DNA of 64,000 bases from an uncultured Acidobacteriota bacterium (GCA_963843575.1 CAWJKZ010000024.1:416001-480000), one strand, 5' to 3'; numbered from the stretch's first letter, positions 4,901 through 54,001 are shown. The notes: generated from the sequence alone by a model not told the origin. Program-made: numbers and translations.

Positions 4901-5687
4901 CGGCGGGATGCCAGGTGGCGCCCCAGGTGCGTTGCACGCCATCCAGGGGCAACCTCACAATCCCGCCGTAAGCGGCGTACTTTGCGCCGAAAAAATCGTT
5001 GAACACCATCGTAATGCCGGCGTAGGCGGGGAAGTAGACATCGCGGTCCGCCACCGCGGTGGCGTCCAGCAGTGTCCGTCCCTGATCCGGCCACACGGAG
5101 TCGCCATACACGTAGTAGGAACGCGGATGAGGCAAAACATACCAGCCCACGACGCGGGGAGCTCCGAGGTTGATAACATCGTATGAGACCTCGCGCCAGT
5201 AGTGATCTATCCCGGGGAACGTGGACGCAAACATCGCCTGGTAGAAACCTGGCGTCCGCGGCTCATCGGACACATCCGGAAATTTGCAGAGAATGATGAG
5301 CCAGGGCTGCGGTCCGGACTTGAGACTGGGCAAGGTGGCGGACTGGCGGACAAGTCCCGCCCGGAAAGGCGGCGAGATGAAACGAACAGAGGTGACTCTG
5401 AGGCCTGCACCGTCGATCCACTCGCCACTCACTTCGGCAAAGCGCGGCGAGAGGTCACCGGCGCTGGGGATCACTCCAGGTACATCGGGGGCGAGCGTGA
5501 GATTTGTAGCGTTCCCGGCTGCATCGATGAGGAAATGCCGGACTCCGGAGCGACCTTCCGGGTCGTCAAAACAGATGGTGTGAAACCATCCGATCAGCAC
5601 AATCCCGTCGTTGGGAGGGTGATGGCCCGGCGGCACAGCGCCTAACACTGCGGACAAGAGAACGAGCAGCGGCAATATCCCCGGCAT
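1914..5687 (-). CDS. secreted M6-like zinc metallopeptidase with two copies of an Acidobacteria-type beta-sandwich module flanking NHL repeats
   Basis: Signal peptide; LIILCKFPD...YWREVSY; AHEIGHAFGLPH zinc motif; WDVMS Met-turn; about six NHL repeats (ARFxxPxxIAxDxxGNLYVADxxNHTIRKI); duplicated module FxxxxNGxGxxSTLxLVNPS. Confidence 0.85.
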   Translation of the reverse strand: MPGILPLLVLLSAVLGAVPPGHHPPNDGIVLIGWFHTICFDDPEGRSGVRHFLIDAAGNATNLTLAPDVPGVIPSAGDLSPRFAEVSGEWIDGAGLRVTSVRFISPPFRAGLVRQSATLPSLKSGPQPWLIILCKFPDVSDEPRTPGFYQAMFASTFPGIDHYWREVSYDVINLGAPRVVGWYVLPHPRSYYVYGDSVWPDQGRTLLDATAVADRDVYFPAYAGITMVFNDFFGAKYAAYGGIVRLPLDGVQRTWGATWHPADLFHGVYGHERNSSHYGFAHEIGHAFGLPHSSAGYGGTYDNYWDVMSHWASRVTDPEFGLQAIHTNAYHKDLLGWIRPDEKYTALPGTQKTIQLERLALPMTRAFKMAQIPLPGLHEHFYTAEARQRVGYDTGLYGDAVILYDVDPDRIASGQWGLGSEWRPAHVMDPDMNEFTGDEGPMFVPGRLFQDPGNGVSIAVESAYDTGFTVTINNNARFIAHLANGAGIRSTLVLVNPSATQQASGTVSLFSTGGTPLRLAINGVPRDGLFDFALPPGGSAQYFTDGQGELITGSIEVGSDSPVDASIVLAGTSGIAGLSASSLATTSLVLPVSSDRSTGIRGGIALSNPNSEEIVVAMQLRATDGEPVPGAQTSVRLVPHGQFMKYADEMFPAFDLTEARGTLLATSSLPFNGVAMLQAESGQFTTLPVGPVDRLSKPTPVGIVSTYAGEAGSRGSADGALREARFASPNDIAADRAGNLYVADTASHTIRKISALGVVTTVAGLAGSSGAQDGIGGSARFNTPRSLCADGAGNIFIADYGNHTIRKLAANGTVTTIAGSAGEQGSADGSAAAARFNYPRGIAIDASGTIYVSDTSNHTIRKIAPGGSVTTIAGLAGVPGYADGTGENARFDGQQRIALDSRNNLLVADYNNCVIRKISPEGIVTTLAGTPGLHGGMNGPPETALFGYPMGLAIDSSDGVYVSDGWVVRHVTRDGFVTTLAGSSKINTTPNTSLSGNADGAGTAARFAIPSGLAVDPSGTIFVADRDNHTIRRISKEVAAEPVYFSQFVNGEGLASTLILVNPSLSQPCAGILKLRGSQGQSLGVTFNGIWTDGNYPFNLAPGAALWLATDGLGPLAVGSVEMKSEIPVRSALLFSGVLGLGGLAASRPAARQAVPLDIDSSAYLEAGIALSNPGADTVSISLTLTDTNGLPIVGARAETTLAGYAQIARFPAELFAGKPVNLAKFRGTLVIEASQPICAMALRLSPAGMAALPVIP

Positions 5688-6380
5688 GATGCCTCCTGCT
5701 AAGGTCCGACCGAATAAAAACCCATTATCGACCTAAAACGGGTCTCCGGATCAGAATCTTCCTCACGAGAGGAAGGACGAGACTCACCGAGAGCATTTCG
5801 AACATCCCCGACAACAGACAGGAGCGAGTGCATCAATCGATTCTCAGTGTGGCAGACATCTCGACGACGCAATGTTCAGAGCTGATACGCTGCGCTTGTG
5901 CTCCTGGCGACCCAACACCACAGCGGCGCACGGAGTCGGAGAGGATAGACATCTGACGTGGTCTGGAATCGCCAAGAGGCACGTATCCCGAAAGGCAGGG
6001 TAACTGCAAAGGCGGGTGAATCGACCTACGTTATTGACGGCAGGTGCAGCGGGAGTTTTATCAGACATCCATGAACCGATGATGCCTTTGGCTCGGATTA
6101 CCCAATGATCCAGCGAGGCCTCCTCCGCGGAATTCGAGTCGACGAGAACCATCGGGCACCGTGGAAGTGCTGACAGAAGAGCCCAGAGCACGGGCCTTGG
6201 GCTTGTGAATCCAGCACGGAACCGATAGGAACCGGGTAGGCCCAAACCCCGGTTGCAGCAGTCGGGTGATAGTGATACAAAATCCCTGCGGGGCCAGTTC
6301 CCCGGTAGGTCGACCTTCTTCTCGCAAACCATCTGTCTGATCCTGCGGGCGGCCGCATCGTGTGAAGCTGTCGAACAACA

Positions 6381-6902
6381 GTGATCGCATTCGGGATTCT
6401 GATTCTCCTTGAGAGAGGTGCTGCGGACTCGTTCGCGGCGTCGCAGGCGGTGCTCCTGCGCTCTCGAGAGCAGACCCTGCCGGACATCGCAGGCGTTGCT
6501 ACCTTTGCGGGGAAGGTGGGGGCGCAGCTGACGCCAATCCAGCCGGCGAAACGGGTTGTCGTCGCGGTCCTGTCCGAGACCCTCATTGAAGGCGACGCGG
6601 ACAAACTGCGCTCGGCCGTCCAGGCGATCTCCCAGCAGGTTCGATCGACGCACGAATTCTCGATTGCGCTGCTGCGTGCCGATTCCGTCGACATCTCGGG
6701 CCCCCTCAAGAGTCGGGCTCAGATCCAGGCTGCACTCAGGACTGCCGTCCGGCAGGCTGCTCCGGAGTCGGCTGCAGCCGGCCCTCTTTCCGCCTACACG
6801 ATGCTTCTGAGGAACCTCGGGCAGCTGGGAATGGACTGGTCCTCGCTTCTTGTCGTCGGGCGGCTGGCTCCGCCTGATTACCCCCGCGTGGTGTATGCCT
6901 GA
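6381..6902 (+). CDS. hypothetical protein, possibly a truncated VWA-like domain
   Basis: 173-aa ORF with protein-like alternating alpha/beta pattern; no clear RBS; ends abruptly. Confidence 0.4.
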   Translation: MIAFGILILLERGAADSFAASQAVLLRSREQTLPDIAGVATFAGKVGAQLTPIQPAKRVVVAVLSETLIEGDADKLRSAVQAISQQVRSTHEFSIALLRADSVDISGPLKSRAQIQAALRTAVRQAAPESAAAGPLSAYTMLLRNLGQLGMDWSSLLVVGRLAPPDYPRVVYA

Positions 6903-6996
6903 ACCCTCCGCGGGACAACAACCTGGACCTGATCGCAGGTGCCGGACAGCCACACTGTCAAGGCCGGGGCCCTCTATGGTGAGCGCACATCCCGGC

Positions 6997-8028
6997 CTAC
7001 CGTGACGGTTCGGCTTCCCGGATGAATCGGGTCTGCTCCTCGCGCAGACGAGCCAAATGCCAACGGCCCGGGTGGACGAACACCCGATAGCGCAAGAGAA
7101 GTTGCCGGCCCGCGCCCAGGGTGTAGGGCTCCAGCTGCAGCAGCGAGGCGTTCAGAAACCAGAAGGGCACCGACGGGTCGACGATGCCGTACCAGCGGGT
7201 CGGGGCCCGCGGATTGGGGGGGTGATCGAAAAACGCAACGCCTGCGGTATCGCCGTCTATTTCTCCGCTGAACTCGGCGGCCCAAGCAGCGAACCCGTAT
7301 CTGTTCTTGGCCAGCGCACCGGTATCGCCGGTCGCAGCGATGACCGGGTTGCTCAGTTCCCGCGCCAGGCGGATCGACAAGCCCGCGTAACCGCCCCGTG
7401 CAATCCCGTCCGGAGTCGTGTCCGGGGGCGTTCGGTCCAGTACCACGGCCTCGTTTCCGGCTGTGAAGTCCAGGCGCCAGTCCATGAAGTAGCTGCCGTC
7501 GGGGGCGGGTGATGAGATCCGGATGACCCGTTGCTCGGTGAGGATGTCCTGAACGGCTTTCTGCGGACGGTACTTCAGGTCCAGGGTAACGACGGCGGAG
7601 TAGTCCGGCTGCATATCGACCCTGACATTGGACCACTTCGTGGCCCCGTCCGGGTTCTCTTCCCAGTAATTGACTCCATTCAGGTACTTCCAGCAGAAGA
7701 ACAGGGCGAAGTGGTAGGGGTGGTCTTTCGGGCTCAGCCAGGTCAAGGCTGGCCCGCCGGGCAGGGCCACGGGATGAAAGTAGGCAATCGTTTGGCCGGG
7801 CGCATAGTTGAATTGCCAGATTGTCCTGTCCCCCTTCAGGAGCGCAGCGGTTCCCGCGTCCCGGCGCCAGCTGAAACTCGCCGTGTCCTGCCGCACGGCC
7901 CGGCTGTGCGGGGCGAGCGCCAGGGCCAGTGCCAGAACGACCGCGCCGCGGCGGCACGCACGCGCTCCAGGCGAGGCGAAAGAACTCGCCTCGAGGGCTC
8001 GACGACTCCAAGAATCTCGAAGAGGCAT
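6997..8028 (-). CDS. PmoA-like (DUF6807) secreted protein
   Basis: YFHPVALPGG...DHPYHFALFF, GGYAGLSIR, FDHPPNPRAPTRW motifs. Signal-like hydrophobic stretch. Start placed at the ATG just after the upstream stop; start is uncertain. Confidence 0.8.
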   Translation of the reverse strand: MPLRDSWSRRALEASSFASPGARACRRGAVVLALALALAPHSRAVRQDTASFSWRRDAGTAALLKGDRTIWQFNYAPGQTIAYFHPVALPGGPALTWLSPKDHPYHFALFFCWKYLNGVNYWEENPDGATKWSNVRVDMQPDYSAVVTLDLKYRPQKAVQDILTEQRVIRISSPAPDGSYFMDWRLDFTAGNEAVVLDRTPPDTTPDGIARGGYAGLSIRLARELSNPVIAATGDTGALAKNRYGFAAWAAEFSGEIDGDTAGVAFFDHPPNPRAPTRWYGIVDPSVPFWFLNASLLQLEPYTLGAGRQLLLRYRVFVHPGRWHLARLREEQTRFIREAEPSR

Positions 8029-8033
8029 ACTCG

Positions 8034-9374
8034 TCAGGTCGTCTTCAGGTAGTCCGTTCCGAAGGGAGCTCGCTGTTCTCTCCGGAGCATCGCGTTTGCC
8101 TGATCGCTGTTCTTGAACTTCTCCTGCTGGGCATCCCACTGAAGCACCCCCGGCACCTTCATGGCGATGTGGCTGATCAGGCAGAGAGTGCAGGCCCTGT
8201 GCCCCATCTCCACAGTGGAGATGGGTTGTTTCCGGCTCCTGATGCAGTCAAGCCAGTTGCCGTGGTGCTCGGTCGTCATATACAGGTGAATCTCGGTCTC
8301 CTTGATCTCCGAGGATAGTATCCGCGGATCGCCGGCATCGAGCTTCGGGGTGCCCGCATGAGTCACAAAAATCCAGCCCGTTTCCCCCTCGTACTTTATG
8401 CCGTACGGGTATCCCGTCCCTGCAAACAAGGTGATGCCGTTGCCGTAGACTGCTTTCAGCATGAAATCGCCATGGACGTTCCATATCCCCGAGCGAGGGA
8501 ACTGTGCAACGGCCTGTATCGAAGACGGTCCGGTGAGCTCGGTGTCCATGCCCCAGGCTGCATAGTCGAAGAAGTGCGATCCCCAGCCCGTGATCATTCC
8601 CGCCCCGAACTGTTCATTCCGCAGCCACCCGGGTCTTGAATAGTCGTTCTGGGGATGCACCCTGAGCTCGTTGTAGAAAACCTGGGGCGTCGATCCCAGC
8701 CAGGTATTGTAGTCCAGGGTTGCGGGAACCGGCTCTTCCCCGACTTCAGGCCCGGGAGGATCGCCCGGCATACCTATCTTGACCGTGTGCAGTTTTCCTA
8801 TCCTCCCGTTCCGCACCAGTTCCGCGGCCTTCCGATATTGCGGATCGGACGAACGGCACTGCGCTCCGACCTGCAGTATTACCCCCTTCCTGTTCACGAC
8901 GTCGCTGAGTAGCCTGCCCTCTCTGATGGTAAGGGTCAGGGGCTTCTGGATATAGATGCCCTTGCCGGCAAGGGCCGCCTCGATGGCCGGCTGCGCATGC
9001 CACTGGTCCGGGGTGCTGATGATGACGGCATCGATCGAGGGATCGCGAAGCATCTCCCGGTAGTCCGAGAACATCCTGACGTCGAGGTAGTGCGTCCTGC
9101 CGGTCTTCTTGTCGTAATAGTCCTCGATCATCCTCTTGCCGTCGGCCATGCGCCTGCGGTCGAGATCGCACACCGCGACCACCCTGGCCGTATCGTATTT
9201 AAGTATCTCCGGCAGGTTGTGGTCACGGGCGATCCGGCCGCAACCGATCTGGCCGATGTTTACCCTGTCGCCGGGAGGAATGATTCCTGTCGCATGAGAA
9301 CGGGCGATGGAAGGTGCGACGAAGGTCCCGGCGGCCCCCGCGATGGTGTTTTTTAAAAAGCGTCGTCTGTTCAT
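8034..9374 (-). CDS. Tat-exported Gfo/Idh/MocA oxidoreductase
   Basis: MNRRRFLK Tat motif; IGCGRIA; ISTPDQWH; YIQKP; ITGWGSH. Confidence 0.92.
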   Translation of the reverse strand: MNRRRFLKNTIAGAAGTFVAPSIARSHATGIIPPGDRVNIGQIGCGRIARDHNLPEILKYDTARVVAVCDLDRRRMADGKRMIEDYYDKKTGRTHYLDVRMFSDYREMLRDPSIDAVIISTPDQWHAQPAIEAALAGKGIYIQKPLTLTIREGRLLSDVVNRKGVILQVGAQCRSSDPQYRKAAELVRNGRIGKLHTVKIGMPGDPPGPEVGEEPVPATLDYNTWLGSTPQVFYNELRVHPQNDYSRPGWLRNEQFGAGMITGWGSHFFDYAAWGMDTELTGPSSIQAVAQFPRSGIWNVHGDFMLKAVYGNGITLFAGTGYPYGIKYEGETGWIFVTHAGTPKLDAGDPRILSSEIKETEIHLYMTTEHHGNWLDCIRSRKQPISTVEMGHRACTLCLISHIAMKVPGVLQWDAQQEKFKNSDQANAMLRREQRAPFGTDYLKTT

Positions 9375-10368: not shown

Positions 10369-11805
10369 TCAAACGATGACCCTGGTGTTTCCCCCCCGTT
10401 CGAGGTTGATGTCCATGTTCTGTTTGTTCGTTTTCCACGCCCCGGCCGTGAAATCGGGTATGTCGATGGAGTTCGAGCGGTTCAGGACGGACCACTCGCT
10501 CAGCGGTACGATCGCGCTCCAGGCGGCCGCGTCATAGACATCCTGGTCGAGCGGCAGTCCATTGCGCAGGCAATCAATCAGCCGCCAGTCTTCCAGCAGG
10601 TCGGTGCCGCCGTGACCGGCCTTGGTCTGGAGAGCGAGTTCAGTCATCTGGCGGGTGAGCTTCGGCGTGTATTCATCCGTCAGTGCCTTGAATTCATCAG
10701 GGGGAATCCAGGCGTGATTCCCCACGGAAAGCCTCGGGGGCGGTGGATCGTAGAGCGCGGCCCCTTTGGTGCCATAGATGCCGTGGATGAGGTTGTGCGG
10801 CGACGGTGAAGTGGCATCGTGCTGGAGCATGATGGTGCGCCCCATGTTGGTCCGGATTGTGGTGACGCTCATGTTGCCACGATAAGTCTTTCCGGCAAAC
10901 GGCTTGAAGAACTCATCCGCGGCGGCAAGTTCCAGTGCTTTCGCGTTCATCATGAAGTCGCGGCTCTCGACGGATACCAGGAACTCGAACCTGTCGCCGC
11001 GGTTGATGTTCATCAACTGGCTGACCGGGCCAAGGCCATGGGTGGGGTAGATGTTTCCCCGCCTCGAGGCATATTGCCTGAGCCACCACATGTCCCAATA
11101 CATGTTCCGGGAAAAATTGTTCTCCATCTTGCTGGTGTTGTAGGCGCAGTCACCGTGCACCACCTCTCCGAAAAAACCCTGTCTGGCCATGTTCAGGGTC
11201 ATGATCTGGAAGGGCAGGTAGCAGTCGTTCTCCATCATCATGCAATGCTTCCGGGTCCGTTCGGCGGTTTCCACCAGCGACCAGCACTCGTCGATGGTCC
11301 CGGCGGCCGGCACCTCGGAAGCCACGTGTTTGCCGTGCTCCATCGCGTAGACCGCCATCGCCGCGTGCAGGTACCAGGGAGTGGTTATCATGATCAAGTC
11401 GATGTCGTGGCGCTCACACACCCGCTTCCACTCCTCCGGTCCGCACAGGACGTCCGGGTGGTGAGATGTTCCGCGCAGCCTTTCCTTGGCTGCATGCGCC
11501 TTTTCCGGCCGGATATCGCAGAGAGCCGCGATTTCGACCCCCTCGATCTGGCTCATGATCGCCATGTGGGCCGGACCGCGCTGGCCGAGGCCGATGATCG
11601 CGATACGCACCCTTTCCAGTGGAGGCGCTGCGTAACCGGACATGTTGAAGGGTTGGACGCGGGTCTTCGTCACCTGCCTCCTCACGTCCGCAGGGTCGTC
11701 CCGGCGACCTGCCTGGGGGGCTCTGCCATGCAGCAGGCCGCCGCCGGCGAGACCCAGCCCGGTGAGGCTTGTTGTTTTGATGAAGTTTCGTCGCTTGGTA
11801 TTCAT
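10369..11805 (-). CDS. GH109 NAD-dependent alpha-N-acetylgalactosaminidase-like protein, Tat-exported
   Basis: KRRNFIK Tat motif; IGLGQRG; ASEVPAA; MMMENDCY; YPTHGLGPV; GHGGTD; DVYDAAAWS. Confidence 0.88.
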   Translation of the reverse strand: MNTKRRNFIKTTSLTGLGLAGGGLLHGRAPQAGRRDDPADVRRQVTKTRVQPFNMSGYAAPPLERVRIAIIGLGQRGPAHMAIMSQIEGVEIAALCDIRPEKAHAAKERLRGTSHHPDVLCGPEEWKRVCERHDIDLIMITTPWYLHAAMAVYAMEHGKHVASEVPAAGTIDECWSLVETAERTRKHCMMMENDCYLPFQIMTLNMARQGFFGEVVHGDCAYNTSKMENNFSRNMYWDMWWLRQYASRRGNIYPTHGLGPVSQLMNINRGDRFEFLVSVESRDFMMNAKALELAAADEFFKPFAGKTYRGNMSVTTIRTNMGRTIMLQHDATSPSPHNLIHGIYGTKGAALYDPPPPRLSVGNHAWIPPDEFKALTDEYTPKLTRQMTELALQTKAGHGGTDLLEDWRLIDCLRNGLPLDQDVYDAAAWSAIVPLSEWSVLNRSNSIDIPDFTAGAWKTNKQNMDINLERGGNTRVIV

Positions 11806-11935: not shown

Positions 11936-14900
11936 CTAGAAGGAGAGCCGGAGGCCGAAGCGGAACTTGCGCTCGTTGCCGTCGAACGCGCTCGTGATGG
12001 CCATGAAGTTGTTGACGTTGGTGATGGCTCCCGTGCTCTGATTCACCGTCATGTTGCTGACGTTGGCTGACGGATTGTTGAAGCGCGGGGTGTTGGTGAA
12101 ATTGAACGATTCCGCCCTGAACTGGAGCATGAAACGCTCCGTGATGCGGAAATCTTTGAACAGGACCAGGTCGGCTCTCTGGAAGCCGGGTCCGCGCAGT
12201 GAGTTGCGGCCCATGCTGCCGAAACGGTAGGTGCCCGCCGGGCGCTGGAAATTCGGGTCGCGGAAAGACTCCACCTTGAAGTACTGAGTGCCCGGGCCGA
12301 CGTCGCCGATCTTGACGATTTCTCCGATCTGGTCGGCGGTCTGGCTGGATCCCGGGGTATTGAGCGAGGCGGACGAGGCGGATACGGTGAAGGGCGTGCC
12401 CGAGTAAGCGGAGTAGATGCCGTTGATGCGCCAGCCACCGAAGACGTGGTTCGCGACGCCCCCGAGAGCAAAGCGTTTGCCGGCACCCCAGGGCATCTCG
12501 TAAACCCAGCTCACGACAAGCATGTGTGGACGGTCGTAGCCGGTTACGGAGCGGTTGCGGTAGAGGGCGTCGGGCATGTTGGTGAGCGGCAGGGCCTGCC
12601 AGCCGTCGTCGTCGGCCAGGCTGATAGCCTTGGACCAGGTGTAGGCGCCCTTTATGAAAAGGCCGTGCGACAGGTTCTTGTTGACCGCGACCTGCATCGA
12701 ATGATAGTTCGCGTTGCCCCAGCCATCCCACATGAGGGCTTCGATGAGGCGCTTCTGGGTGGCTACAAGCGGGCGGGAGGAGTTGCCGCCGCCGATGTAC
12801 GTTGCCGCGTTGATGTCGCGGTCCAGGAACTGGCGCACGGTCTGGTTTCCGACGTAGGCGACCGAAACGAGGAGGTCGGCGGGGAGTTGCCGTTCGATGG
12901 TGAAGTTCCAGCTCTGGATGTAACCTCGCTTGATCATGCCCGGCCACGGGCTGCGCGGGCCCATGTTGACGGTCGGGGGCAAGGTCACGGAGCCGCTGGA
13001 AATGTCAGGGGTGGCGACTTCGGGAATGCCGTTCTGGAGCAAGCCGTAATAGCCGTACGTGGTGGGGGCTACCCAGCTCGAAGCGATGGTGGCAGGATAG
13101 AGTCCGCGCAGCGGGCGGGAGATCACCATGGGATCGTAGGTGATCCCGTAGCCGGTCCGCAGGACGGTCTTGTTACCCAGCCTCCAGGCGACGCCGACGC
13201 GCGGGGCGAAGAGCTTCTTGGAGGTGCTGAGGCCGTTTTCACGCGGGACGCTGCCCACGCCGCCGATGGTGACGATGTTCGTGACGGGATCCCAGCGTTC
13301 GAGGCCGCGGCCGTCGGCGCGGCGTCATCAACGGATAGTATTCGTAGCGCAGGCCGAGGTTCAGCGTGAAATTGCGGCTGATCTGCCACCGGTCGCGGAA
13401 GTAAAGGCCGTTCTGCCATTCACGCGTGGTCATGTCGAAGTACTGCACCGACTTGTCGGCGCTGCCGAGGATCCCGAGCAGGCCGGCCGCGTACGTGTGA
13501 ACGGAGCGGGCGACCTGACCCTCGAAGCACGACAGCGTTGCCGCCGGGATTCAGGCAGCCGCGCGGGTTGGCGACTTCGGGCTGCCAGTGGTTCAGGGCG
13601 TGGTGGACGATGTCGACGCCCCAGCGGAATTCGTGCGCTCCCCGTCAGCTTGGTGAAGTTGGTGGTGAAGGTGTAGCTGCGGTCGGCGTAGAAGTTGGGA
13701 TTGGACGAGGCGGAGTTGCCCCACTGGGTGAAACCGTTGCTGATATAGGGCATGCCGGAGTAGCGGATGTCGTTGGCGAATGTCTTGCCGCCGTTCGTCC
13801 CCGGGATCTTCCAGACCTCCGATCCCCAGTTCTTTCCATAGTCAGGCCCGAGGGCTTCGTTCTTGAAGCGCGTGTGGCCGAAGACGCCGTCCACGAGGAA
13901 GGTGGGCGACTGCGTGAGGTTGAAGCCGAAGGTGGGAATCCTGATCTGTGACGTCGGCCACGCCGTTTTGCCCGAGCGCGGGGCCGACCAGTTCGCCGAG
14001 AGCGCCGGCGCCAAAGACGTTCGCCTCCATGTCAGAGTACTTGCCCCAGACCATCAGCTTGTTCGTGACGTTGTAGTTGACCTTGACGTCGTAGTTGTCG
14101 CGGGTCATCCCCGTGCTCGCCGATGCGGAGTAGTTGTTCGTGAGCCCATAGGAGTCCGCGGCCTTCTGATTCGGCAGGGGACAGAGCTTCTGAATCTCGG
14201 TCCAGATCGGCGAGATGACGCGACGCGGGGATCTTATTCCCTTCAAAGGGGGTGCGGTTGTTGCCTTCGGCGTCGCCGGTCAGCGGATCGTAGATGAGCC
14301 CCAGGCCGGTGTAGGCGGAAAAATCGCCCGCACGTACGTCGGCGGGCGGGACGCTGTAATTGCCGGACTGGCCGGTGCGCAGCCAGTTCCGCTCGAAGCT
14401 GAAAAAGTAAAACAACTTGTTCTTGATGATGGGGCCGCCGATAGTGGCGCCCGGGATGTTGGTGATCGACTTGGGGAGACGGGGCTTCACCACGCTCTGC
14501 TGATAGAAATAAGGCCGGGCATAGAGGTGCTGGTTGTCGTGGTACCAGTAGCCGGAGCCGTGGATGTCGTTGGTGCCGGACTTGGTGGACACGGTGACGG
14601 CGGCGCCGCCCGCCATGCCCTGTTCGGCGTCGAAGGAGGAGGTCGAGATGTTGACGTTGTCGATGGCCTCGACGGGCGGGTTGTAGAGCGTGTGGTGCGG
14701 CAGCCAGATGTAGACGTTGATGGCGCCATCGACCCGGGTGTTGTTGTTGTTGCGGTTGGTGCCGTTGACGTTGGTGGTGAGGGAGCGTTGCGGGGATGCG
14801 CCCATGGAGTTCTGTTCCGCGGCGGGAGTGGCCCCGGGCACGAGATTGATCAGGCTCTGGTAGTTGCGATAGTTGGCCAGCGGGAGTTCGACGACGGCGC

Positions 14901-15339
14901 GGGATGTGAGTTCGGCACGGGTATCGGAACGGTCGGTCTGCAACACGGCGGCCGATCCGGTAACCGTTACCTGCTCGCTGAGCTGACCAACCTCCAGGCG
15001 GAGGTTGACGCGGGTAACGCTGTTGATGGTGACCTCGACACCGGTCCGCGTCAGGGTGCGGAATCCGGGCGCGGTGACGGTGATGGTGTATGTGCCGGCG
15101 GGCATGTTGACCGCCGTGTAACGGCCTTGCGCATCCGCCGTAATCTCACGGGCCGTCCCGGTAGGCACGTGGGTGAGCGAAACGGTGGCGCCGGGAAGAA
15201 CAGCGCCCGAAGGATCCTCGACGTTGCCCACGATCGAGCCGTATAGCACTTGGGCAGATGCGGGCTGGCTGGCGATACACGCCACGAAAAGCAGGGGAAG
15301 AAAGGTTCTGAATGGGCTGATCCATCTTTGCATGACCAT
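11936..15339 (-). CDS. TonB-dependent receptor with carboxypeptidase-regulatory-like N-terminus (several frameshifts at ~13250-14250)
   Basis: Signal peptide + GSIVGNVEDPSGAVLPGATV; ELPLANYRNYQSLINLVPG; KSGTNDIHGS; GGPIIKNKLFYF; LNLGLRYEYY; FAPRVGVAW; C-terminal RKFRFGLRLSF. Pieces lie in different frames. Confidence 0.9.
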
Positions 15340-21120: not shown

Positions 21121-22500
21121 TCACTTGAGAAACAGCTCGACGACCGGGATCTCAACTGCGGGTTTCACCACCGGGAGCCTGAGAATCAGGTCGCCGGACG
21201 CCCCCTCTTCCCGGATCCAGGTTGAGTCCTTCCTCGTGCTCATCCTCAGTTCGGAAGCGTCGTGCAGGAGCTGCGCATATTTGACCTTGTCGGCGTACCC
21301 CTCGAGTGCGAGCTGCCCCATGGGCCAGTCGAGCAGGTGGACGTAGAGCCTCCGGGTCCCTGGATTGTAGGTGAGCAGGGAGTTTTCCGGCGCTTTGAAT
21401 CCGTCGGGTGCCTGGGTGCAGCCGTAGATGGAAGGGCTGTTCACCTGCATCCAGCGGCCCATCGCGCGCAACCGGTCCTGTGCCCGGTCGTCGAAGGTGC
21501 CGCGCGCCGTCGGCCCGACGTTGAGCAGCAGGTTGCCCCCCTTGCTCACCGTTTCGATGAGCAGCACCAGCAGCTGCTTCGCGTCCTTCCAGGTGGGCTC
21601 GTCGCGGTAGTAGCCCCAGGAGCCGGAGAACGTCTGGCAGGTCTCCCAGGGGACGCGCACCCCGTTCATGGTCACCCACTGGCGCGGCTTGAACTGCTCG
21701 GGCGTGCGGAAGTCCCAGCCGCCGTCCACGTCCAGCAGGTCGAGGCGGTCGTTGACTATGATGCCGGGCTGCAGCTCCCGCACCATCTTCAGCAGGTTCT
21801 CCGAATCCCAGTCCGCCCTCCCCTTGCCGTTTTTGCCGGCGAAGGAGAAATCCAGCCAGATGATGTCGATCTTGCCGTAATTGGTGAGCAACTCGCGAAC
21901 CTGGTCTTTCAGGTACTGGCGGTAGACCGCCATGTCGCGCCCCTGATTCAGGCTCGCGTACTCCTCGTCGGTTTTTGCGCTCTGAGGGTGATTGCTGTCG
22001 ACGGTGTAGCTGGGGTGATGCCAGTCGAGCAGCGAATAGTAGAATCCGACCCTGAGCCCTTCCTGGCGGAAAGCGTCGACCCAGGGGCGGATCAGGTCGC
22101 GCCGCGCAGGGGTGTTGGTGGCCTTGTAGTCGGTGAATTTGGAATCGAAAAGGCAGAAGCCCTCGTGATGTTTGCTCGTGATCACGGCGTACTTCATGCC
22201 GGCCGCCTTGGCCATCCTGGCCCATTCGTGCGGGTCGTACAGGTCGGGGTTAAAGAGATCGAAGTACTTCTGGTAGTCCTCGTTCGTCATCCGCTCGTAC
22301 TTCTTCACCCACTCGTGGCGCGCCGCCTGCGCATACAGCCCCCAGTGGATGAACATGCCGAAACGCGCCTCGGTCCACCACCGCATGCGCGTTTCCTTTT
22401 GCTGCGCCGTCTCCCTCGGCAGCTGGGCAAGCCCGCTCATCGAGAGCAGAAGCAGGCAGGTTGCGGCCAGCGCGGCTTTCGACAGACCGTGTCTCTTCAT
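21121..22500 (-). CDS. alpha-L-fucosidase (GH29)
   Basis: ARFGMFIHWGLY, AGMKYAVITSKHHEGFCLF, GFYYSLLDWHHP, IIWLDF, GGNLLLNVGP. Start placed at MKRHGLSK (signal peptide). Confidence 0.93.
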   Translation of the reverse strand: MKRHGLSKAALAATCLLLLSMSGLAQLPRETAQQKETRMRWWTEARFGMFIHWGLYAQAARHEWVKKYERMTNEDYQKYFDLFNPDLYDPHEWARMAKAAGMKYAVITSKHHEGFCLFDSKFTDYKATNTPARRDLIRPWVDAFRQEGLRVGFYYSLLDWHHPSYTVDSNHPQSAKTDEEYASLNQGRDMAVYRQYLKDQVRELLTNYGKIDIIWLDFSFAGKNGKGRADWDSENLLKMVRELQPGIIVNDRLDLLDVDGGWDFRTPEQFKPRQWVTMNGVRVPWETCQTFSGSWGYYRDEPTWKDAKQLLVLLIETVSKGGNLLLNVGPTARGTFDDRAQDRLRAMGRWMQVNSPSIYGCTQAPDGFKAPENSLLTYNPGTRRLYVHLLDWPMGQLALEGYADKVKYAQLLHDASELRMSTRKDSTWIREEGASGDLILRLPVVKPAVEIPVVELFLK

Positions 22501-22626
22501 ATATTGTCCTCGCAAGACAATGGCCCCAGGTTGATATTGGATCGATCTCGTTCGCAAGGGCAATCCTAATGCCCGTCGAGCATCTACCGTCAGCTTTTTT
22601 TCGCTGGGTCGGCCGCTGGGTTCCCC

Positions 22627-23805
22627 TCAGGAGGGTTCGGCTCGGTTTGCGGATCCTGCCCGTTTCGTCACCATGAGCAGGTCGAGCGGGTCGGGGAGGC
22701 TGGGAAACAGGGACCGGTACTTCAGCGACACCCTGTTGTATGCGCAGATGAAATCCGGTACCCGGTGCGGGTCCGAGTTTGCCGGGTCGCAGGCAATCGA
22801 TGCGGGGCACACCGAGCAGGCGCGACTGTAGCTGCACTCGGCGCACCTGCCGTAGGAGGAGTACCGCTCCTCGAGGTCACGGAACAAGGCCGTATCTGCT
22901 ATCGTCTTCAGGTAGTCGGAATGACGTTGCCGTAGCCGGGAATCACGAAAATCCCCCAGCTTGAGCGGTGCGAGTGCCTGGTTGAGCAGGTCGGAAGAAA
23001 ATTCCCGGTAGGATTCGGCGAACAGCACGCAACCGTACGCCTGGCCGTCCACGTCGATGACGAGGTTGCTCCCGGCGACAGCGCTGCACGGTTCGCGGGT
23101 CTCCCTGCCCCCGGCGTGCTTGCGGAAAAGTGCGACCGGCACCGTGCCCGTTTCTCGCAGGCAGCGCAGGCTGTCCGCATATACCCCGGCGAACTGGTCG
23201 TCGAGGGCCGCGACATCCCCGACTTTCCACTCGGGCCACGGGCGCATCGCCGGGAACAGGATGAGGTGGCAGACTCCTTTCTCCATGAAGTACCGGACGG
23301 ATTCTGAAAGGTACCGCACCGTGGCGGGGGTCTGGATCGCACTGATGCGCAGTCTCCGGCTGAAGAGATCCGGGGTATTACGCCGCAACCGGTCCAGGAG
23401 AGAGTCCAGCGCATCGAACGACGCCTGTTGCCGGTAATCCTGCGCTGAGGCGACGCCGTCGAAGCTCAGTTGAACCTGGAATCGATGGTCGTCGAGAAAA
23501 CGGGCGATTTCATCGGTGATCAGCAGCCCATTTGTACTGATTTCGTAATCGACCTTCCGGTCTGGGGGCAATCGGGAAGCCGCGTACCCGACTGATTCGA
23601 GGATCGAGTCCCACTGCAGCAGCGGTTCGCCGCCTGTGAAGTGGATCCTGATGTTCTCGGTGCCCCGGGCGATGGCGAAATCCACCGCCGCCCTGAGCGT
23701 GTCCGATGCCGTGTCGATGTGCTTCCGGGCAGTCTGGTAGCAGTACCTGCAGCTCAGGTTGCACTCGGTCGTGAGGATGAGGGTAAAGGAACTGAAACCG
23801 ACCAC
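22627..23805 (-). CDS. radical SAM enzyme with C-terminal SPASM domain (peptide-maturase-like)
   Basis: CNLSCRYC (CxxxCxxC), FTGGEPLL, STNGLL, LSFDG. SPASM Cys pattern: C...DGQAYGC...CAECSYSRACSVC...C. Confidence 0.92.
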   Translation of the reverse strand: MVGFSSFTLILTTECNLSCRYCYQTARKHIDTASDTLRAAVDFAIARGTENIRIHFTGGEPLLQWDSILESVGYAASRLPPDRKVDYEISTNGLLITDEIARFLDDHRFQVQLSFDGVASAQDYRQQASFDALDSLLDRLRRNTPDLFSRRLRISAIQTPATVRYLSESVRYFMEKGVCHLILFPAMRPWPEWKVGDVAALDDQFAGVYADSLRCLRETGTVPVALFRKHAGGRETREPCSAVAGSNLVIDVDGQAYGCVLFAESYREFSSDLLNQALAPLKLGDFRDSRLRQRHSDYLKTIADTALFRDLEERYSSYGRCAECSYSRACSVCPASIACDPANSDPHRVPDFICAYNRVSLKYRSLFPSLPDPLDLLMVTKRAGSANRAEPS

Positions 23806-23818
23806 AACAGCCCTGTAA

Positions 23819-24052
23819 TCAGCGGCAGGGTCCCACAGGTGGAATCCGATTCTTCATCAAGTAAGTTTCCGAAACAAAGCCGATGACCTGCTCGTCCGGC
23901 TGGGTCAGGGTCAGCGAATTCCTGAACTCGCGTATGACGCCGCGGGTGTAGCAGAGCTGGTCGAGGTTCTGATCATAAAGCGCATTTTCTATGTTTTCCA
24001 GCATCTGTCGCAGGTGACCGATTGTAACGTCCTGTCCTTCGGTGACTGACAT
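23819..24052 (-). CDS. 77-aa peptide, candidate radical SAM substrate (precursor)
   Basis: Strong RBS AAAGGAG 7 nt before the ATG. Lies 13 nt from the kinase stop and 13 nt from the rSAM start. Helical N-terminal part and C-terminal tail PPVGPCR. Confidence 0.8.
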   Translation of the reverse strand: MSVTEGQDVTIGHLRQMLENIENALYDQNLDQLCYTRGVIREFRNSLTLTQPDEQVIGFVSETYLMKNRIPPVGPCR

Positions 24053-24065
24053 GGTTGTTCTCCTT

Positions 24066-26888
24066 TCAGAACACGCCCTTAGTCGCCTTCAACATCCAAA
24101 TCTGTCCGGCCGTTTCCTCGTTCGAAAACACGAGCCACTTTCCATCCCTGGATAAATCGAATAGCCCGCTGGATTGGGCTCCTCCAAACTCGATCTCCGG
24201 CGCGAACGGGGCCGCAACGCCGGAGGCCGAGACCGTGCGCAAGGTAACTCGTTTCTCGCCCCACGAACCGCTGACCAGGAGATCGCCCGTGAGCGCGTCC
24301 CAGCGGACGAACTTTGCGTTCGCCCCCCGGGTGCACTGTTGGATCGCCCCGCCTCCGTCGGCCGAAACGAGCGCCACGTCGGTGCCGCCGGTGTTCCCGT
24401 CGACGAAAGCGAGCCGCTTGCCGTCCGGTGACCACACCGGGCCATAGGCCATCGCGGATCCGGCCGCGACGCGCTGCCGGGCCCCTAATTGCCCCGGATC
24501 GCCCCTCTCGACGGCTTCTCTGACCCGCACCGTGACTATTTCAGAACCGGTGCCCGTCAGTGACACGAAGGCGAGCATGGAGCCGTCCGGCGACCAGGAG
24601 GGCGTGTGGCTTTGGGGTGGGCAGACCGGCAGCACGCGCCCGCTCGAGGAGGAAACCACCAGGACCTCGCGCTTGTTGCCTGTCAGCCGATAGCAGGCGA
24701 TCCACTGTCCGTCGGGTGACAGTGCCGGGTGTTGCAGGTTTCCCTGCCGCTCCGTGATGGGAGTGGGGTCCCCGTGGGGGATTCCGTCCTTCAGCGGTTC
24801 CGCCCAGAGGTCGCCTTCCGTGCCCGAGAGCTTCGGGGTGAACACAACGGACGAGCCGTCCGCGGCAATCGCGGGGAGCGACAGCGCCCACTGATTGACC
24901 GGCAGTGACGCCATCGCACGCGAGAGCCTGTTGAGGAGCAGGAGTTTCGCCCGGGAGTTGATGGTTGCGTACACGAGCCGCTTGCCATCCTTGGACAGGC
25001 TGGGGTGACGCTCCTCGGGCACGCCGTCGGTGACACGGAAGGGCGCTCCCCCGTTTGCCGCGACGCACCATATCGCACACCTGCCGCCCATCAGGCCGCA
25101 GTAGTAGATCCGTTCCCCGTCCGAGGACCAGGCCGGATCATACTTGTGGGTCCCGTCGCTGGTGATGCGCACCCGTCTGGCGCCGCCGGCCCATTCCGAC
25201 GTCCAGAGGTCCTGGTTTTCCACGTAGCAGACCCTTCGGCCGTCGGGCGACCATGCCGGCCGGCCCGTGTCTGTCATGAGCCCGCTCAGGGCTGTGGCCG
25301 ACGACGGGTTTCCGAGGGGTGCCACCGCGACGCGGTAGCCGTTCGGCAGGATCTGGGTGTAGGCGATGTGCAGATTGTCCGGCGATATGGCCGGCTCGAC
25401 CGCGTCTGATATCAGGAGGGTCGAGCCGCCGCCGAGCAGCCTGATTTTGCGGATCTCCGGCCTCCCCTCGGTCCGGGATGAATAGGCGATATTGGATCCG
25501 TCCGGGAACCAGGCAGGATCCGTGTCCTCCGCAGGACTTTCCGTGATGTTCCGGCGGGTGGTGCCGTCCAAGTCGGTCACGTAGATCTCGGAATTCCCTG
25601 AGGCGTTTGATGAAAACGCGATCCAGTTGCCGTCGGGTGCAATATCCGGCTGGCCTTCGACGGCAGTGCTGGCGGTTACGGGCGCGACTTCAAAACTCGG
25701 GACAGGCGGCACCGTGCGGCGTGACCATTGCCAGAGCACCCCGGCGGTAATCAGCAGGCAGGCGAGGATCGCGACCCCCGCGAATCCGGGCTTGATCAGG
25801 CCGGCAAACGAGAGGCTTTTCCATTTCGGCCCAAGGGCAATGAGGCGTTGCTCGCGTATCTCCTCGAGTTCGACCTTCACGTCCGCCATCGTCTGGAAGC
25901 GGCGCGCCGGATCCTTGCGCAGGCAGCGATCGACCACTCCGCGCAACGGGTCGGGCACGCCCCTCTGGAGCGGAGCCGGCTCCTCCTTGATGATTGCCGC
26001 CAGGGTCGAAATGAAGTGCTCTCCTTTGAACGGGCGCCGGCCGGACAGCATCTCGTAGAGCATCGACCCGAAGCTGAAGATGTCCGACCGGCAGTCGAGC
26101 GGCTGGCCCTGCGCCTGCTCCGGCGACATGTACGCCGCCGTGCCGAATACCTTTCCTTCCAGCGTCGAAGATTCCTCGTGCCCTGTCCTCGCGGTCGCGG
26201 CGGCCCCGGACGGAACCCGCGCGAGGCCGAAGTCGAGCACCTTGACGAAGCCGGCAGCGGTGATCATGACGTTGGAGGGTTTCAAGTCCCGGTGAACGAT
26301 CCCTTTTGCGTGGGCGTGAGTGAGCGCGTCCGCAACCTGGACCGCGTACTTCAGCGCGTCGTCGAGCGGCAGGCCGTTCGGGCCGATCACCCGGTCCAAC
26401 CGCTTTCCGTCGACCCACTCCATCGCGATAAAGTCGAAGTTCTCCGATCTGTCCACGTCGTAAACGGTGAGGATATTGGGGTGGCTGATCTGGGCGAGCG
26501 CGCGCGCTTCCTTCAGGAAACGCCGCCGGCCGTCGTCGCTGCCAAGCGTCCCGGGCGCGAGGATTTTGATCGCAACCTCGCGCTGGAGCTTTTCATCGCG
26601 GGCGCGGTAGACGACACCCATGCCACCCCGTCCCTCCAGGGCCTCGATCATGTACGACGAAAACCTCGACCCTGGCGCAAGACCACCGCGGTGCCCGGCA
26701 GAGCCCGCCGCCCTCTCCGTCGTCCCGGCCATCGCGGAAGCGTCCTGTAAGAGGTGCGATTTGACTTCCCGCCGCAGCTCGGCGTCGCCGGCACAGGCTT
26801 CGTCCACGAAGGCGTCGACCTTGCCGGTAGGGAGGGTGCGTGCTTTGTCGACGATGCCCGAAATCCGGTTGTAGCGTTCAGGGTCCAT
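24066..26888 (-). CDS. membrane Ser/Thr protein kinase with extracytoplasmic PD40/TolB-like propellers
   Basis: GRGGMG, VAIK, HRDLKPSN, DFG, YMSPEQ, SDIFSFG. One TM helix (FAGVAILACLLITAGVLW). About 12 PD40-like repeats. Confidence 0.95.
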   Translation of the reverse strand: MDPERYNRISGIVDKARTLPTGKVDAFVDEACAGDAELRREVKSHLLQDASAMAGTTERAAGSAGHRGGLAPGSRFSSYMIEALEGRGGMGVVYRARDEKLQREVAIKILAPGTLGSDDGRRRFLKEARALAQISHPNILTVYDVDRSENFDFIAMEWVDGKRLDRVIGPNGLPLDDALKYAVQVADALTHAHAKGIVHRDLKPSNVMITAAGFVKVLDFGLARVPSGAAATARTGHEESSTLEGKVFGTAAYMSPEQAQGQPLDCRSDIFSFGSMLYEMLSGRRPFKGEHFISTLAAIIKEEPAPLQRGVPDPLRGVVDRCLRKDPARRFQTMADVKVELEEIREQRLIALGPKWKSLSFAGLIKPGFAGVAILACLLITAGVLWQWSRRTVPPVPSFEVAPVTASTAVEGQPDIAPDGNWIAFSSNASGNSEIYVTDLDGTTRRNITESPAEDTDPAWFPDGSNIAYSSRTEGRPEIRKIRLLGGGSTLLISDAVEPAISPDNLHIAYTQILPNGYRVAVAPLGNPSSATALSGLMTDTGRPAWSPDGRRVCYVENQDLWTSEWAGGARRVRITSDGTHKYDPAWSSDGERIYYCGLMGGRCAIWCVAANGGAPFRVTDGVPEERHPSLSKDGKRLVYATINSRAKLLLLNRLSRAMASLPVNQWALSLPAIAADGSSVVFTPKLSGTEGDLWAEPLKDGIPHGDPTPITERQGNLQHPALSPDGQWIACYRLTGNKREVLVVSSSSGRVLPVCPPQSHTPSWSPDGSMLAFVSLTGTGSEIVTVRVREAVERGDPGQLGARQRVAAGSAMAYGPVWSPDGKRLAFVDGNTGGTDVALVSADGGGAIQQCTRGANAKFVRWDALTGDLLVSGSWGEKRVTLRTVSASGVAAPFAPEIEFGGAQSSGLFDLSRDGKWLVFSNEETAGQIWMLKATKGVF

Positions 26889-33532: not shown

Positions 33533-33760
33533 GGGGACTGACCTCAGCGACTCTTTTTTTATATGGAGTTATACGGTATTCGCCCCTGAAAAGGGGCCAT
33601 ATTTGAGATTTTCGAGGCTGTTTCTTCGAAATATGACTTCCGTTGCTCGCACATGGATCTTATTCACAAAAAGGGAGCAAAAAAGCGCAAATAAAGGGCT
33701 TTTGGAGCAGAAATATGCAGGAAACCACTGATTCTAAGGATTTTGCTCAGGTCCGTCCCC
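33533..33760. mobile_element. AT-rich MITE/REPIN-like palindromic element, copy 2
   Basis: TIRs ggggactgacctcagc / gctcaggtccgtcccc (14/16 match). Shares blocks with copy 1 in the same order. Confidence 0.75.
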
Positions 33761-35466
33761 TGATTCTGCTGCTGTTGCTGGCGCTGCCTGTGGCGGCGCA
33801 AGGGGACCGTATGGAATGGTTCCGGCATGACAAGTTCGGCATGTTCATCCATTTCGGACCCTATTCGATGCTCGCAGGCGAGTGGAAAGGGCAGCGGGTC
33901 CCGGTCGGGGACGAGGCCGAGTGGATCATGCAGCGCTTCAACATCCCGGCTCGGGAATATCGCGAAATGGCCCGCGGCTTCAACCCCGTTCACTTCGACG
34001 CAAACGCCATCGTTCGCCTCGCGAAGCTCGCAGGGATGAAGTACCTCGTGGTCACGGCCAAGCACCACGACGGCTTCTCCATGTACCACTCGAAGGTCTC
34101 GCCCTACAACATCGTGGACTGGACAAAGTTCGGACGGGATCCGGTGAAGGAACTGGCCGAATCCTGCGCCAGGGAAGGGCTCCGGTTCTGCGTCTACTAC
34201 TCCCACCGCGAGGACTGGGACCACCGCGACGGCTACGGAAACCACTGGGACTACGACGTGTCGAAGAAAGACTTCGCGCGCTACCTCCGCGAAAAGTCGC
34301 TGCCGCAAATGCGCGAGCTGCTCACGGGATATGGACCGCTCGGACTGGTCTGGTTCGACCGGGGCATCGACACGCCGCAGCAGGCCATGGAGTTCGTCAA
34401 CCTGGTGCGGGAGCTGCAGCCGCGCTGCCTGATCAACGGCCGCGTCGGCAACTACGGTCGAGACCTGATGGGCGACTACCAGAACATGAACGACAACGGG
34501 ATGCCCACCGGCGGGCTCGAAGAGTATTGGGAAACGCCGCAGACGCTGAACCGGACTTGGGGCTACAGCCGGTTCGACCAGGAATGGAAAACCCCCGCCG
34601 GCGTCGTCCAGCGCCTCGTCGAGGTCGTCGGCAAAGGGGGCAACTACCTGCTGAATATCGGCCCCATGGGCGACGGCAGAATCCCGCCGCCAAGCGTGGC
34701 GGTCCTGGAACAGGTGGGCGCATGGGTCCGGAGAAACGGGGAGAGCATTTATGGGACGTCCGCCTGCCCGCTGCAGGACTTCCCCTGGGGCCGCTGCACC
34801 GTGCGCGGCGCAAAGGTCTACCTGCACGCGCTGACCAGGCCGGCGGACGGCACCCTCCGGGTGAGCGGGTTAATAACGGCGGTGAAGAGCGCGTACCTTC
34901 TGGCCGAGCCGGCGCGCAGGCTGGAGGTGTCGAATAAAGACGACGTGATATCGGTGGTGGTGGGGCAGGGGAACTGGGACGAGTTCGACACGGTCGTCGT
35001 CCTGGAACTCTCTGGTCCGCCAACGGTCGACCCGCCGCTTGTCACCCAGGGAAGCGATGTGCCGTTTCAACTCGACTGCCAGAACGCCGTGACCGCCGGC
35101 CGGGCCGTCAAGCGGTTCAATCGGGACGGCGGTTTTCACATCTCGAAGTGGACTGGGCCGGAAGATGCGTGCGCATGGCGTCTGCTCGTGAGCCAGCCCG
35201 GACGCTACCGGGTCATGATCCGCTATGCCGCGACGCCGACATCCACGCTTCGCGCGTACACCGTGCGGATCGGGGAACAGGTTCTCGAAGCGCAGGTTGT
35301 GAGCACCGGGGAAGGTTACCGCTACACGGAAGTCGAGCTGGGTACGGTGGAGTTGAAGCGGGCGGGCCCGCTGACCGTGCGGGTAGCACCCAAGGACGCG
35401 GGGGAGAATCTCATGTATCTCCAGCGTCTCTCCCTGAGGCAGGTGGGCCGGGTGGCCGTCGAGTGA
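33715..35466 (+). CDS. alpha-L-fucosidase (GH29) with C-terminal CBM-like domain
   Basis: KFGMFIHFG, AGMKYLVVTAKHHDGF, LVWFD, WETPQT, GGNYLLNIGP. Signal LILLLLLALPVAA. Start uncertain because it lies inside the repeat element. Confidence 0.92.
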   Translation: MQETTDSKDFAQVRPLILLLLLALPVAAQGDRMEWFRHDKFGMFIHFGPYSMLAGEWKGQRVPVGDEAEWIMQRFNIPAREYREMARGFNPVHFDANAIVRLAKLAGMKYLVVTAKHHDGFSMYHSKVSPYNIVDWTKFGRDPVKELAESCAREGLRFCVYYSHREDWDHRDGYGNHWDYDVSKKDFARYLREKSLPQMRELLTGYGPLGLVWFDRGIDTPQQAMEFVNLVRELQPRCLINGRVGNYGRDLMGDYQNMNDNGMPTGGLEEYWETPQTLNRTWGYSRFDQEWKTPAGVVQRLVEVVGKGGNYLLNIGPMGDGRIPPPSVAVLEQVGAWVRRNGESIYGTSACPLQDFPWGRCTVRGAKVYLHALTRPADGTLRVSGLITAVKSAYLLAEPARRLEVSNKDDVISVVVGQGNWDEFDTVVVLELSGPPTVDPPLVTQGSDVPFQLDCQNAVTAGRAVKRFNRDGGFHISKWTGPEDACAWRLLVSQPGRYRVMIRYAATPTSTLRAYTVRIGEQVLEAQVVSTGEGYRYTEVELGTVELKRAGPLTVRVAPKDAGENLMYLQRLSLRQVGRVAVE

Positions 35467-53819: not shown

Positions 53820-54001
53820 GGAGGACCTCCATGCCGCAAAAAACCTCATCTTAATTCAACCGCTTTGGCGGAAACCAGTGATTCATGCTATGGTGCCGGG
53901 GCATGAGACTGCCGGTTTGCACCGTGGCCGCGTGCGACGTCCCGCCGGCGGCACATCCTCCTTCACCCGCGTCGCACTCGATATCAAGAGGGGACTCCCA
54001 G

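Follow-up and report, generated by a model that had tools for sequence, protein, structure and literature searches.

Much new peptide chemistry has come from radical S-adenosylmethionine (SAM) enzymes that carry a SPASM domain and are encoded beside small open reading frames (ORFs). Among those characterised, PapB, CteB, QhpD and CcpM make Cys thioether cross-links, and QhpD does so in a small protein that stays in a cellular complex, not in a secreted peptide. For the anaerobic sulfatase-maturating enzyme anSME, the target is a Cys or Ser residue in a protein. Kinases are also genetically tied to Cys-based modification of ribosomal peptides, as in the class III/IV lanthipeptide synthetases and the TOMM kinase/cyclase proteins (TIGR03903). 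In the archaeon Methanococcus voltae, the SPASM enzyme CrpC is described in an abstract as forming thioether (ranthionine) cross-links on the neighbouring Cys-containing protein CrpA (PMC13692751). Here we describe a locus in a stretch of 64,000 nucleotides (nt) from an uncultured Acidobacteriota bacterium (GCA_963843575.1, CAWJKZ010000024.1:416001-480000; the whole stretch is hereafter the window) in which a SPASM enzyme and a small Cys-bearing protein are encoded together with a receptor kinase. Gene order, conservation, a common enzyme clade, intact motifs and a Cys in every small ORF define these three genes as a conserved, self-contained module in soil bacteria. The original prediction, made from the window alone, had named the locus a candidate undescribed system of peptides made by ribosomes and modified after translation (RiPPs) or of peptide signalling, and the comparisons below support that proposal, with modification and phosphorylation as its putative steps.

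The cassette lies on the minus strand, which the original prediction had left unstated, and is read in the order kinase, small ORF, radical SAM enzyme. ORF calling places a Hanks-type Ser/Thr protein kinase of 940 amino acids (aa) at 24066..26888, a small protein of 77 aa, the candidate substrate of the enzyme, at 23819..24052, and a radical SAM/SPASM enzyme of 392 aa with a GTG start at 22627..23805. The three genes are co-directional with gaps of 13 nt each, as first proposed, and direct reading also bore out the predicted overlap at the first junction, where the last base of the kinase stop codon TGA (24068-24066) falls within the Shine-Dalgarno (SD) motif AAAGGAG of the small ORF (24060..24066, minus strand), 7 nt before its ATG (24052). 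Because of the short gaps and of an SD motif overlapping the kinase stop codon, the three genes are most likely co-transcribed. The small ORF, 13 nt upstream of the enzyme, has the placement of a short precursor-type gene beside its modifying enzyme. Its translation matches exactly the one quoted earlier, and its GC content by codon position (0.58/0.35/0.67, thus GC3>GC1>GC2, in a window of 64% GC) is coding-like; with the strong SD motif and the single homolog described below, this small ORF looks coding.

Conservation of the kinase-peptide-enzyme order had been set as a test of the proposal, and the order holds in two sets of loci. The genome of origin contains one further paralog of the enzyme (41% identity, at the end of contig C22), and homologs occur in 11 of 60 related genomes (28-50% identity, E<=1e-30); by tblastn, a same-strand kinase homolog lies directly upstream in all 12 of these loci. 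A pattern scan of a collection with one genome per species gave 79 loci, of which the 35 scoring at least 150 bits with the window enzyme were taken as family loci. A kinase-propeller gene ends 287-851 nt upstream on the same strand in 30 of the 35, while three others have less than 700 nt of upstream DNA and are not evaluable. One locus that was unclear at first (L061) proved on inspection to carry an 864-aa kinase-propeller ORF upstream and a gap ORF of 126 aa, which brings the total with a same-strand upstream kinase to 31 of 32 evaluable family loci. At L038 the kinase is divergent and about 1.4 kb away, and a small ORF still precedes the enzyme. Weaker SPASM matches (from Clostridia, Treponema, Synergistota and others) have a kinase in only 2 of 44 cases, and both of these (L066, at 130 bits, and the truncated L072) look like family members themselves. 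Two pairs of loci are duplicate contigs (L024/L034 and L029/L050). Such a recurrence of the cassette arrangement greatly exceeds what chance would give.

A quick maximum-likelihood tree of 88 enzymes, from which two fragments shorter than 250 aa and two duplicates were left out, places the window enzyme in a clade of 45 rows (SH-aLRT support 99), comprising 41 with an upstream kinase, one with a divergent kinase, three that are not evaluable and none that is unlinked. The coupling of the enzyme and its small ORF to the kinase is strict and phylogenetically deep. Record titles in this clade name Acidobacteriota of several classes, Candidatus Eisenbacteria, Candidatus Krumholzibacteriota and metagenome-assembled genomes labelled Fibrobacteraceae. 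Since the branching departs from these taxon labels and the two copies of the genome of origin fall in different subclades, the cassette has likely undergone transfer or old duplication. Its occurrence is patchy: among 300 other genomes chosen to sample the phylum evenly, the enzyme profile matches 15. The genes on either side differ from locus to locus, and include major facilitator superfamily (MFS) transporters, a TonB-type receptor, peptidases, an arginine repressor and elongation factor P, with downstream neighbours on the opposite strand in 23 of 35 loci by crude ORF calls. As the flanks are unrelated between loci, the conserved unit consists of the three genes. In four loci (L037, L047, L048 and L063, at about 5100-8100 in each) the enzyme gene is immediately followed, on the same strand, by a Peptidase_M64-like gene, the only addition that recurs and perhaps a fourth component that is optional. 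Two loci (L037 and L030) have integrase or transposase genes next to them. A variant arrangement is found in L031 and L032, where the kinases have a long helical-repeat region in place of the PD40 repeats and the gap of about 2 kb contains small ORFs before the enzyme; in the tree these two enzymes (28-30% identity) are not part of the main clade but neighbours of two unlinked enzymes from Bacillota. The second cassette of the genome of origin (L010; C22, 44000-53355) is diverged and lies at a contig end. It comprises a kinase-propeller ORF of 1061 aa, a separate PD40 ORF of 228 aa, a small ORF of 91 aa and the 41%-identical enzyme, the C-terminal part of which is matched in another frame and the ORF of which runs off the contig.

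The enzyme has the cysteines that had been predicted for it. The CxxxCxxC motif (C15-x3-C19-x2-C22) is invariant in an alignment of 14 sequences (the window enzyme and 13 homologs), as are seven C-terminal cysteines (C240, C259, C321, C324, C330, C333 and C354), which in the window enzyme are spaced C240-x13-G254-x4-C259 (G254 likewise invariant), C321-x2-C324-x5-C330-x2-C333 and C354, which makes up the complete seven-Cys SPASM motif for two auxiliary clusters. Pfam Radical_SAM (PF04055) is matched at 51.5 bits against a cut-off of 29.5. The solved structures closest to the family profile (A1) are those of CteB (5wgg, 103.8 bits) and then anSME (4k37, 71.4 bits), and the profile aligns from CteB residue 90 onward, so that the N-terminal extension or RiPP recognition element (RRE) is missing, as had been noted. 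The NCBIfam models matched by the window enzyme are PapB (NF047865, 119.7 bits against a cut-off of 340), HxsB (95.5 against 370), QhpD (TIGR03906, 82.2 against 453) and anSME (TIGR03942, 67.3 against 349.45). Across the family, PapB is the top model in 14 of 14 aligned members (best E 1.2e-40), followed by QhpD (14 of 14, best E 8e-32) and then CcpM, all below their cut-offs. By these profile scores the enzyme is placed in a Cys-modifying branch of the SPASM enzymes and is a member of no named family, in agreement with the earlier expectation that it would not cluster with a characterised one. A large protein search with the window enzyme returned at least 399 proteins at E<=1e-20 among 7,422 candidates. 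Among the 120 matches listed, including the protein of the window itself, identities are 39-66% and names are generic only (such as 'sulfatase maturation enzyme AslB' or 'radical SAM protein'). A scan of metagenome contigs with the 66%-identical enzyme (P0002) as query gave no confirmed locus.

Each of the described systems shares part of this arrangement. The ranthipeptide maturase PapB and CteB resemble the window enzyme in joining a radical SAM core to a full SPASM domain, and it too lies beside a small Cys-bearing ORF. However, it lacks an RRE and scores far below the PapB cut-off, no precursor model, that of SCIFF included, is matched by the small ORFs, the family is always accompanied by a receptor kinase, and the window contains neither protease nor exporter. 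The likeness to QhpD-QhpC, of quinohemoprotein amine dehydrogenase maturation, is that the QhpD model ranks second throughout the family, although again well under the cut-off; no dehydrogenase subunits are encoded in the window, and the partner here is a kinase. Like the window enzyme, anSME is an RRE-less SPASM enzyme of similar length, but the conserved neighbours here are a kinase and a small ORF and, as stated in the original prediction, the window has no sulfatase: none was detected in the 40 large window ORFs scanned, a scan confined to the window. CrpC and CrpA offer a precedent for a protein rather than a short peptide as cross-link substrate, although CrpC has a predicted RRE, its substrate is Cys-rich, the system is archaeal and the abstract does not mention a kinase (PMC13692751). 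The lanthipeptide synthetases and TOMM kinase/cyclases differ in that the kinase of the window is a transmembrane Hanks-type receptor with a PD40 propeller, and its scores on their models (LanL 92.6 against a cut-off of 650, TOMM_kin_cyc 136.6 against 705.75) reflect the generic kinase domain only. A literature search for a triad of kinase, small protein and radical SAM enzyme found no description, with the limit that large surveys of radical SAM RiPPs may list the clade. Published accounts include conflict systems of other kinds in which SPASM enzymes go with FxSxx peptides (PMC7159879), and phosphorylated linear peptides (PMC13381572). The cassette is apparently undescribed, and is distinguished by its obligatory receptor kinase and missing RRE.

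The kinase consists of an N-terminal region of about 70 aa, a kinase domain (about 79-347), a hydrophobic segment (368-386) and a PD40/TolB-like propeller (about 400-940). It matches Pfam Pkinase (PF00069) at 163.2 bits (cut-off 31.7) and PD40 at 179.5 bits, and contains the motifs GRGGMG (at 86), VAIK (105), HRDLKPSN (199) and DFG (219), with the catalytic motifs at least 90% conserved across 31 full-length cassette kinases; the kinase is apparently active. Residues 368-386 form the sole hydrophobic window and hence one transmembrane segment. Because this single membrane segment follows the kinase domain, ordinary topology reasoning leads us to infer that the propeller faces outward, on the extracytoplasmic side. 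The genome of origin encodes about 29 Hanks-type kinase domains, the best paralog scoring 381 bits with the window kinase, whereas its counterparts in the cassettes of other genomes reach 450-902 bits, so that the closest relatives of a cassette kinase are other cassette kinases. The only Cys columns conserved in at least 50% of them are position 322 (58%) and position 554 in the propeller (87%). One kinase-propeller paralog, with 381 bits and 35% identity to the cassette kinase, lies close by at C24:413779-416196, reaching into the window at 1-196, and no radical SAM homolog was found beside it.

The small protein of the window has cysteines at positions 34 and 76, the latter in a tail that ends IPPVGPCR. 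A HMMER pass over 1.84 billion representatives gave a single accepted homolog (P0122, 73 aa, 41% identity, E 1.4e-5), which shares with it DVT, NIE-ALY, NLD, TR-V and the C-terminal PPVG-x-C. Both cysteines had been singled out in the original prediction; that of the PPVGxC tail is conserved in P0122, whereas Cys34, in 'LCY', has no aligned Cys there, and the three tyrosines, also proposed as a feature, gain no support. The other significant match (P0123) is a repeat protein and was taken as spurious. An AlphaFold2 model of low confidence (mean pLDDT 61) has helices at 11-27, 31-46 and 53-66 and a disordered C-terminal tail that holds PPVGPC. No signal peptide or hydrophobic segment is present in the sequence. 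A predicted complex of enzyme and peptide scored 0.02 against a mark of 0.32, without control runs beside it. Further searches with the peptide returned no match in Pfam or NCBIfam, none at E<=0.1 in the 60 related genomes, none by tblastn on the 12 related loci, only itself in a word-indexed search of 5.8 billion proteins, no usable match in the ESM Atlas and no confirmed locus in a scan of metagenome contigs with the peptide alignment.

Small ORFs were compared across 41 loci (the window, nine from relatives and 31 from the species-level collection, leaving out L031, L032, L038, L061, duplicates and three truncated loci). All 41 have a gap ORF of 61-146 aa on the correct strand. The start codon is ATG in 40, with an SD-like motif before 39 and a 5-mer SD core before 36, compared with a background in which 6% of all ATGs in those loci follow such a core; as starts were picked partly by SD from a median of six candidates per locus, about 31% would be estimated from that selection alone. 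Four loci have two small ORFs each (L039, L041, L049 and L063), and the small ORF of L040 contains three repeats of a PPxxPxx[IV]C-type segment. All 45 small ORFs encode at least one Cys, and 18 exactly one, in an overall composition of 2.2% Cys and 9.3% Pro; Cys is the last residue in seven and lies within two residues of the end in two more, including that of the window. Searched at E<=0.01, the 45 gave no match to a Pfam or NCBIfam model, SCIFF, Nif11/NHLP, PqqA, MftA and PqqD included, which upholds the earlier view that the peptide lies outside known precursor classes. The expectation of an adjacent peptide beside enzyme homologs was thus borne out as regards the intervening small ORF, but for the window peptide sequence homology extends to P0122 only. 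The gap ORFs are positional counterparts and not demonstrable sequence homologs. As a separate observation, Lys/Arg-rich N- or C-terminal tails occur in the small ORFs of L051, L046, L059, L047 and L040, and not in the window peptide.

The reading that we favour, with slightly better than even confidence, is one in which the small protein is the enzyme's cytoplasmic substrate, most likely at Cys76 and most likely with a thioether as product, and the kinase is a functional partner. The identity of the substrate, the chemistry, any phosphorylation and the direction of information flow are what we infer from the genes. That the small protein is the substrate seems fairly probable within this reading; that the product is a thioether is plausible, though we put it somewhat short of even. 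The enzyme would act on the small protein encoded just upstream of it, and the likeliest target would be a Cys in a flexible Pro-rich segment, which in the window would be Cys76 of the C-terminal PPVGPC. Since PapB, CteB, QhpD and CcpM, its nearest characterised relatives, form Cys thioether cross-links, a link of this kind would be the likeliest product. The kinase would be a dedicated partner inherited with the enzyme, probably coupling an extracytoplasmic signal to the modification; its phosphorylation target could be the small protein or the enzyme, or it could itself be under the control of the modified protein. An extended form of this reading, which we regard as unlikely, is that receptor kinase and radical SAM enzyme place two marks, a phosphate and a radical-installed Cys cross-link, on one fast-evolving cytoplasmic protein, and so constitute a new signalling mode. 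The often-conserved Thr at the start of the main helix would then be a candidate phosphosite, and the pathway would have as its output the doubly marked protein and not a secreted peptide.

Several results weigh against modification of a common small-protein substrate in this way. The SPASM model of Pfam reaches only 16.9 bits on the window enzyme, under the cut-off of 21.5. The small ORFs are hypervariable: BLASTP joins 15 of 46 into one cluster, which has a common helix, usually with Trp, and includes a member with a C-terminal GCPPP motif, while six pairs account for some of the others and the rest are singletons, with the window peptide linking to P0122 only. A helix hidden Markov model (HMM) built without the window peptide ranks that peptide 136th among 86,994 six-frame fragments of its own genome (E 260), and with an HMM of the 15-member cluster it falls among reversed-sequence decoys, while L043, L028 and L058 rank ahead of the first decoy. 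The idea of one small-protein family, with the helix HMM as its definition, thus holds only in part, for the 15 members and these three, and the window peptide is outside it. A Pro-x-Cys core motif was also considered and rejected, as it is present in 32 sequences against a mean of 30.9 in shuffles and composition suffices to explain it; the count of Pro-flanked cysteines is 57 against a shuffle mean of 49.2 (standard deviation 4.7). The pattern [IVMF]-T-x-x-[DEQ]-[LIF] stands at the start of the main helix in 18 of 45 small ORFs compared with 1.1 in shuffles (maximum 6), although it was set post hoc on related rows and its Thr is K, R or M in several. A secreted RiPP of the classical kind also lacks support, as the window provides no RRE, leader-cleavage motif, protease or exporter.

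If the small protein were instead modified, exported and perhaps trimmed, its Pro-rich, Cys-modified segment might be bound by the PD40 propeller of its own kinase in an autocrine loop. This retains the ligand-receptor version of the original prediction as an alternative, which we consider rather unlikely. A propeller that is predicted to face outward would suit such a role, and PD40 propellers score on peptide-handling models (TolB, the DPP-IV N-terminal domain and Atxe2); the kinase has been inherited along with the enzyme, and of the 35 loci with a downstream gene called, four have the Peptidase_M64-like gene on the same strand after the enzyme. However, the window peptide has neither a signal peptide nor a hydrophobic segment, no exporter accompanies it, transporters do not recur in the flanks (MFS genes occur in two upstream flanks only), the window has no conserved cleavage motif or protease, and 61-146 aa is long for a diffusible signal. 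The missing RRE also suits a different idea, to which we assign a low probability, namely that the true substrate is another protein, for example the kinase, and that the small protein serves as an adaptor or chaperone replacing the RRE, or as a kinase regulator. QhpD- and anSME-type relatives act on whole proteins, and the small protein is mostly helical in its low-confidence model. A conserved chaperone would not be expected to be hypervariable and to match neither PqqD nor any other family in all 45 cases, every small ORF keeps a Cys, and the kinase has no conserved cytoplasmic Cys, given that position 322 is at 58% and the better-conserved position 554 is in the propeller.

An anSME-like oxidation, which would turn a Cys of the small protein or of a distant sulfatase into formylglycine or a different oxidised product, is suggested by the similar architecture (a full SPASM domain and no RRE), by anSME as the second-best solved structure and by the label 'sulfatase maturation enzyme AslB' that several databases give to homologs. 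We consider it very improbable: the TIGR03942 score is a small fraction of its cut-off, thioether-forming models outscore it in all 14 members, the scanned window ORFs include no sulfatase domain, and many small ORFs end at or next to a Cys, and so lack the C-x-P-x-R context in which sulfatases are modified. The least probable of the alternatives, to which we give hardly any weight, is a conflict or anti-phage module in which kinase and radical SAM enzyme act on a diversifying small protein. The hypervariable small ORFs, the patchy distribution (15 of 300 phylum genomes and 11 of 60 relatives), the integrase or transposase genes beside two loci and a kinase domain that scores up to 291 bits on PADLOC PD-T4-6 models are all in its favour. 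However, the PADLOC kinase matches span the generic kinase domain only, the enzyme matches pVip models over no more than its first ~120 residues (55 and 40 bits), and no other defence genes recur in the flanks.

The immediate surroundings of the cassette in the window also agree with the earlier statement that no protease or transporter is adjacent. On its 5' side is a divergent Fpg-like (glycosylase) gene, and an alpha-L-fucosidase gene follows 63 nt beyond the 3' end of the enzyme. In a scan for promoters and terminators, no candidate exceeded the level of shuffled sequence and none lay in the interval separating the enzyme from the fucosidase gene. A search of sequencing runs listed no RNA run, and five DNA runs, each with a small share of words. 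With Pfam, no HprK-like, PqqD, signal-peptidase-like, lyase or cyclase domain was found in the three cassette genes, and no HprK-like, PqqD or signal-peptidase-like domain in the immediate neighbour genes. Glycan-degrading genes are abundant near the cassette: two alpha-L-fucosidases, a GH106 rhamnosidase, NamZ and a GH109-like enzyme, at window positions 21121-22563, 33643-35466, 51261-53849, 53885-55225 and 10369-11805. The window also contains a nonribosomal peptide synthetase ORF of 1669 aa (55360-60369, plus strand) with two AMP-binding, one condensation and two carrier domains, which is unrelated to the cassette. A TonB-receptor-like outer-membrane barrel (CarboxypepD_reg and OMP_b-brl_4; 11936-15339, minus strand) is apparently split over three ORFs, with 14032-15339 covering profile positions 1-118, 13430-14014 without a match and 11936-13258 covering 427-830, and may be a broken gene or an assembly error.

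No curated model covers the window enzyme or the small protein. If the reading favoured here is right, the enzymes form an uncharacterised clade with a defined candidate substrate in each genome, and since the module is compact (4.3 kb) and exists in many variants, including those with two small ORFs or repeated Cys motifs, comparative experiments are practical. The cassette would then possibly be the first link between Ser/Thr-kinase signalling and radical post-translational modification, and some of the PD40-propeller kinases that have expanded so greatly in Acidobacteriota and neighbouring phyla would acquire a function.

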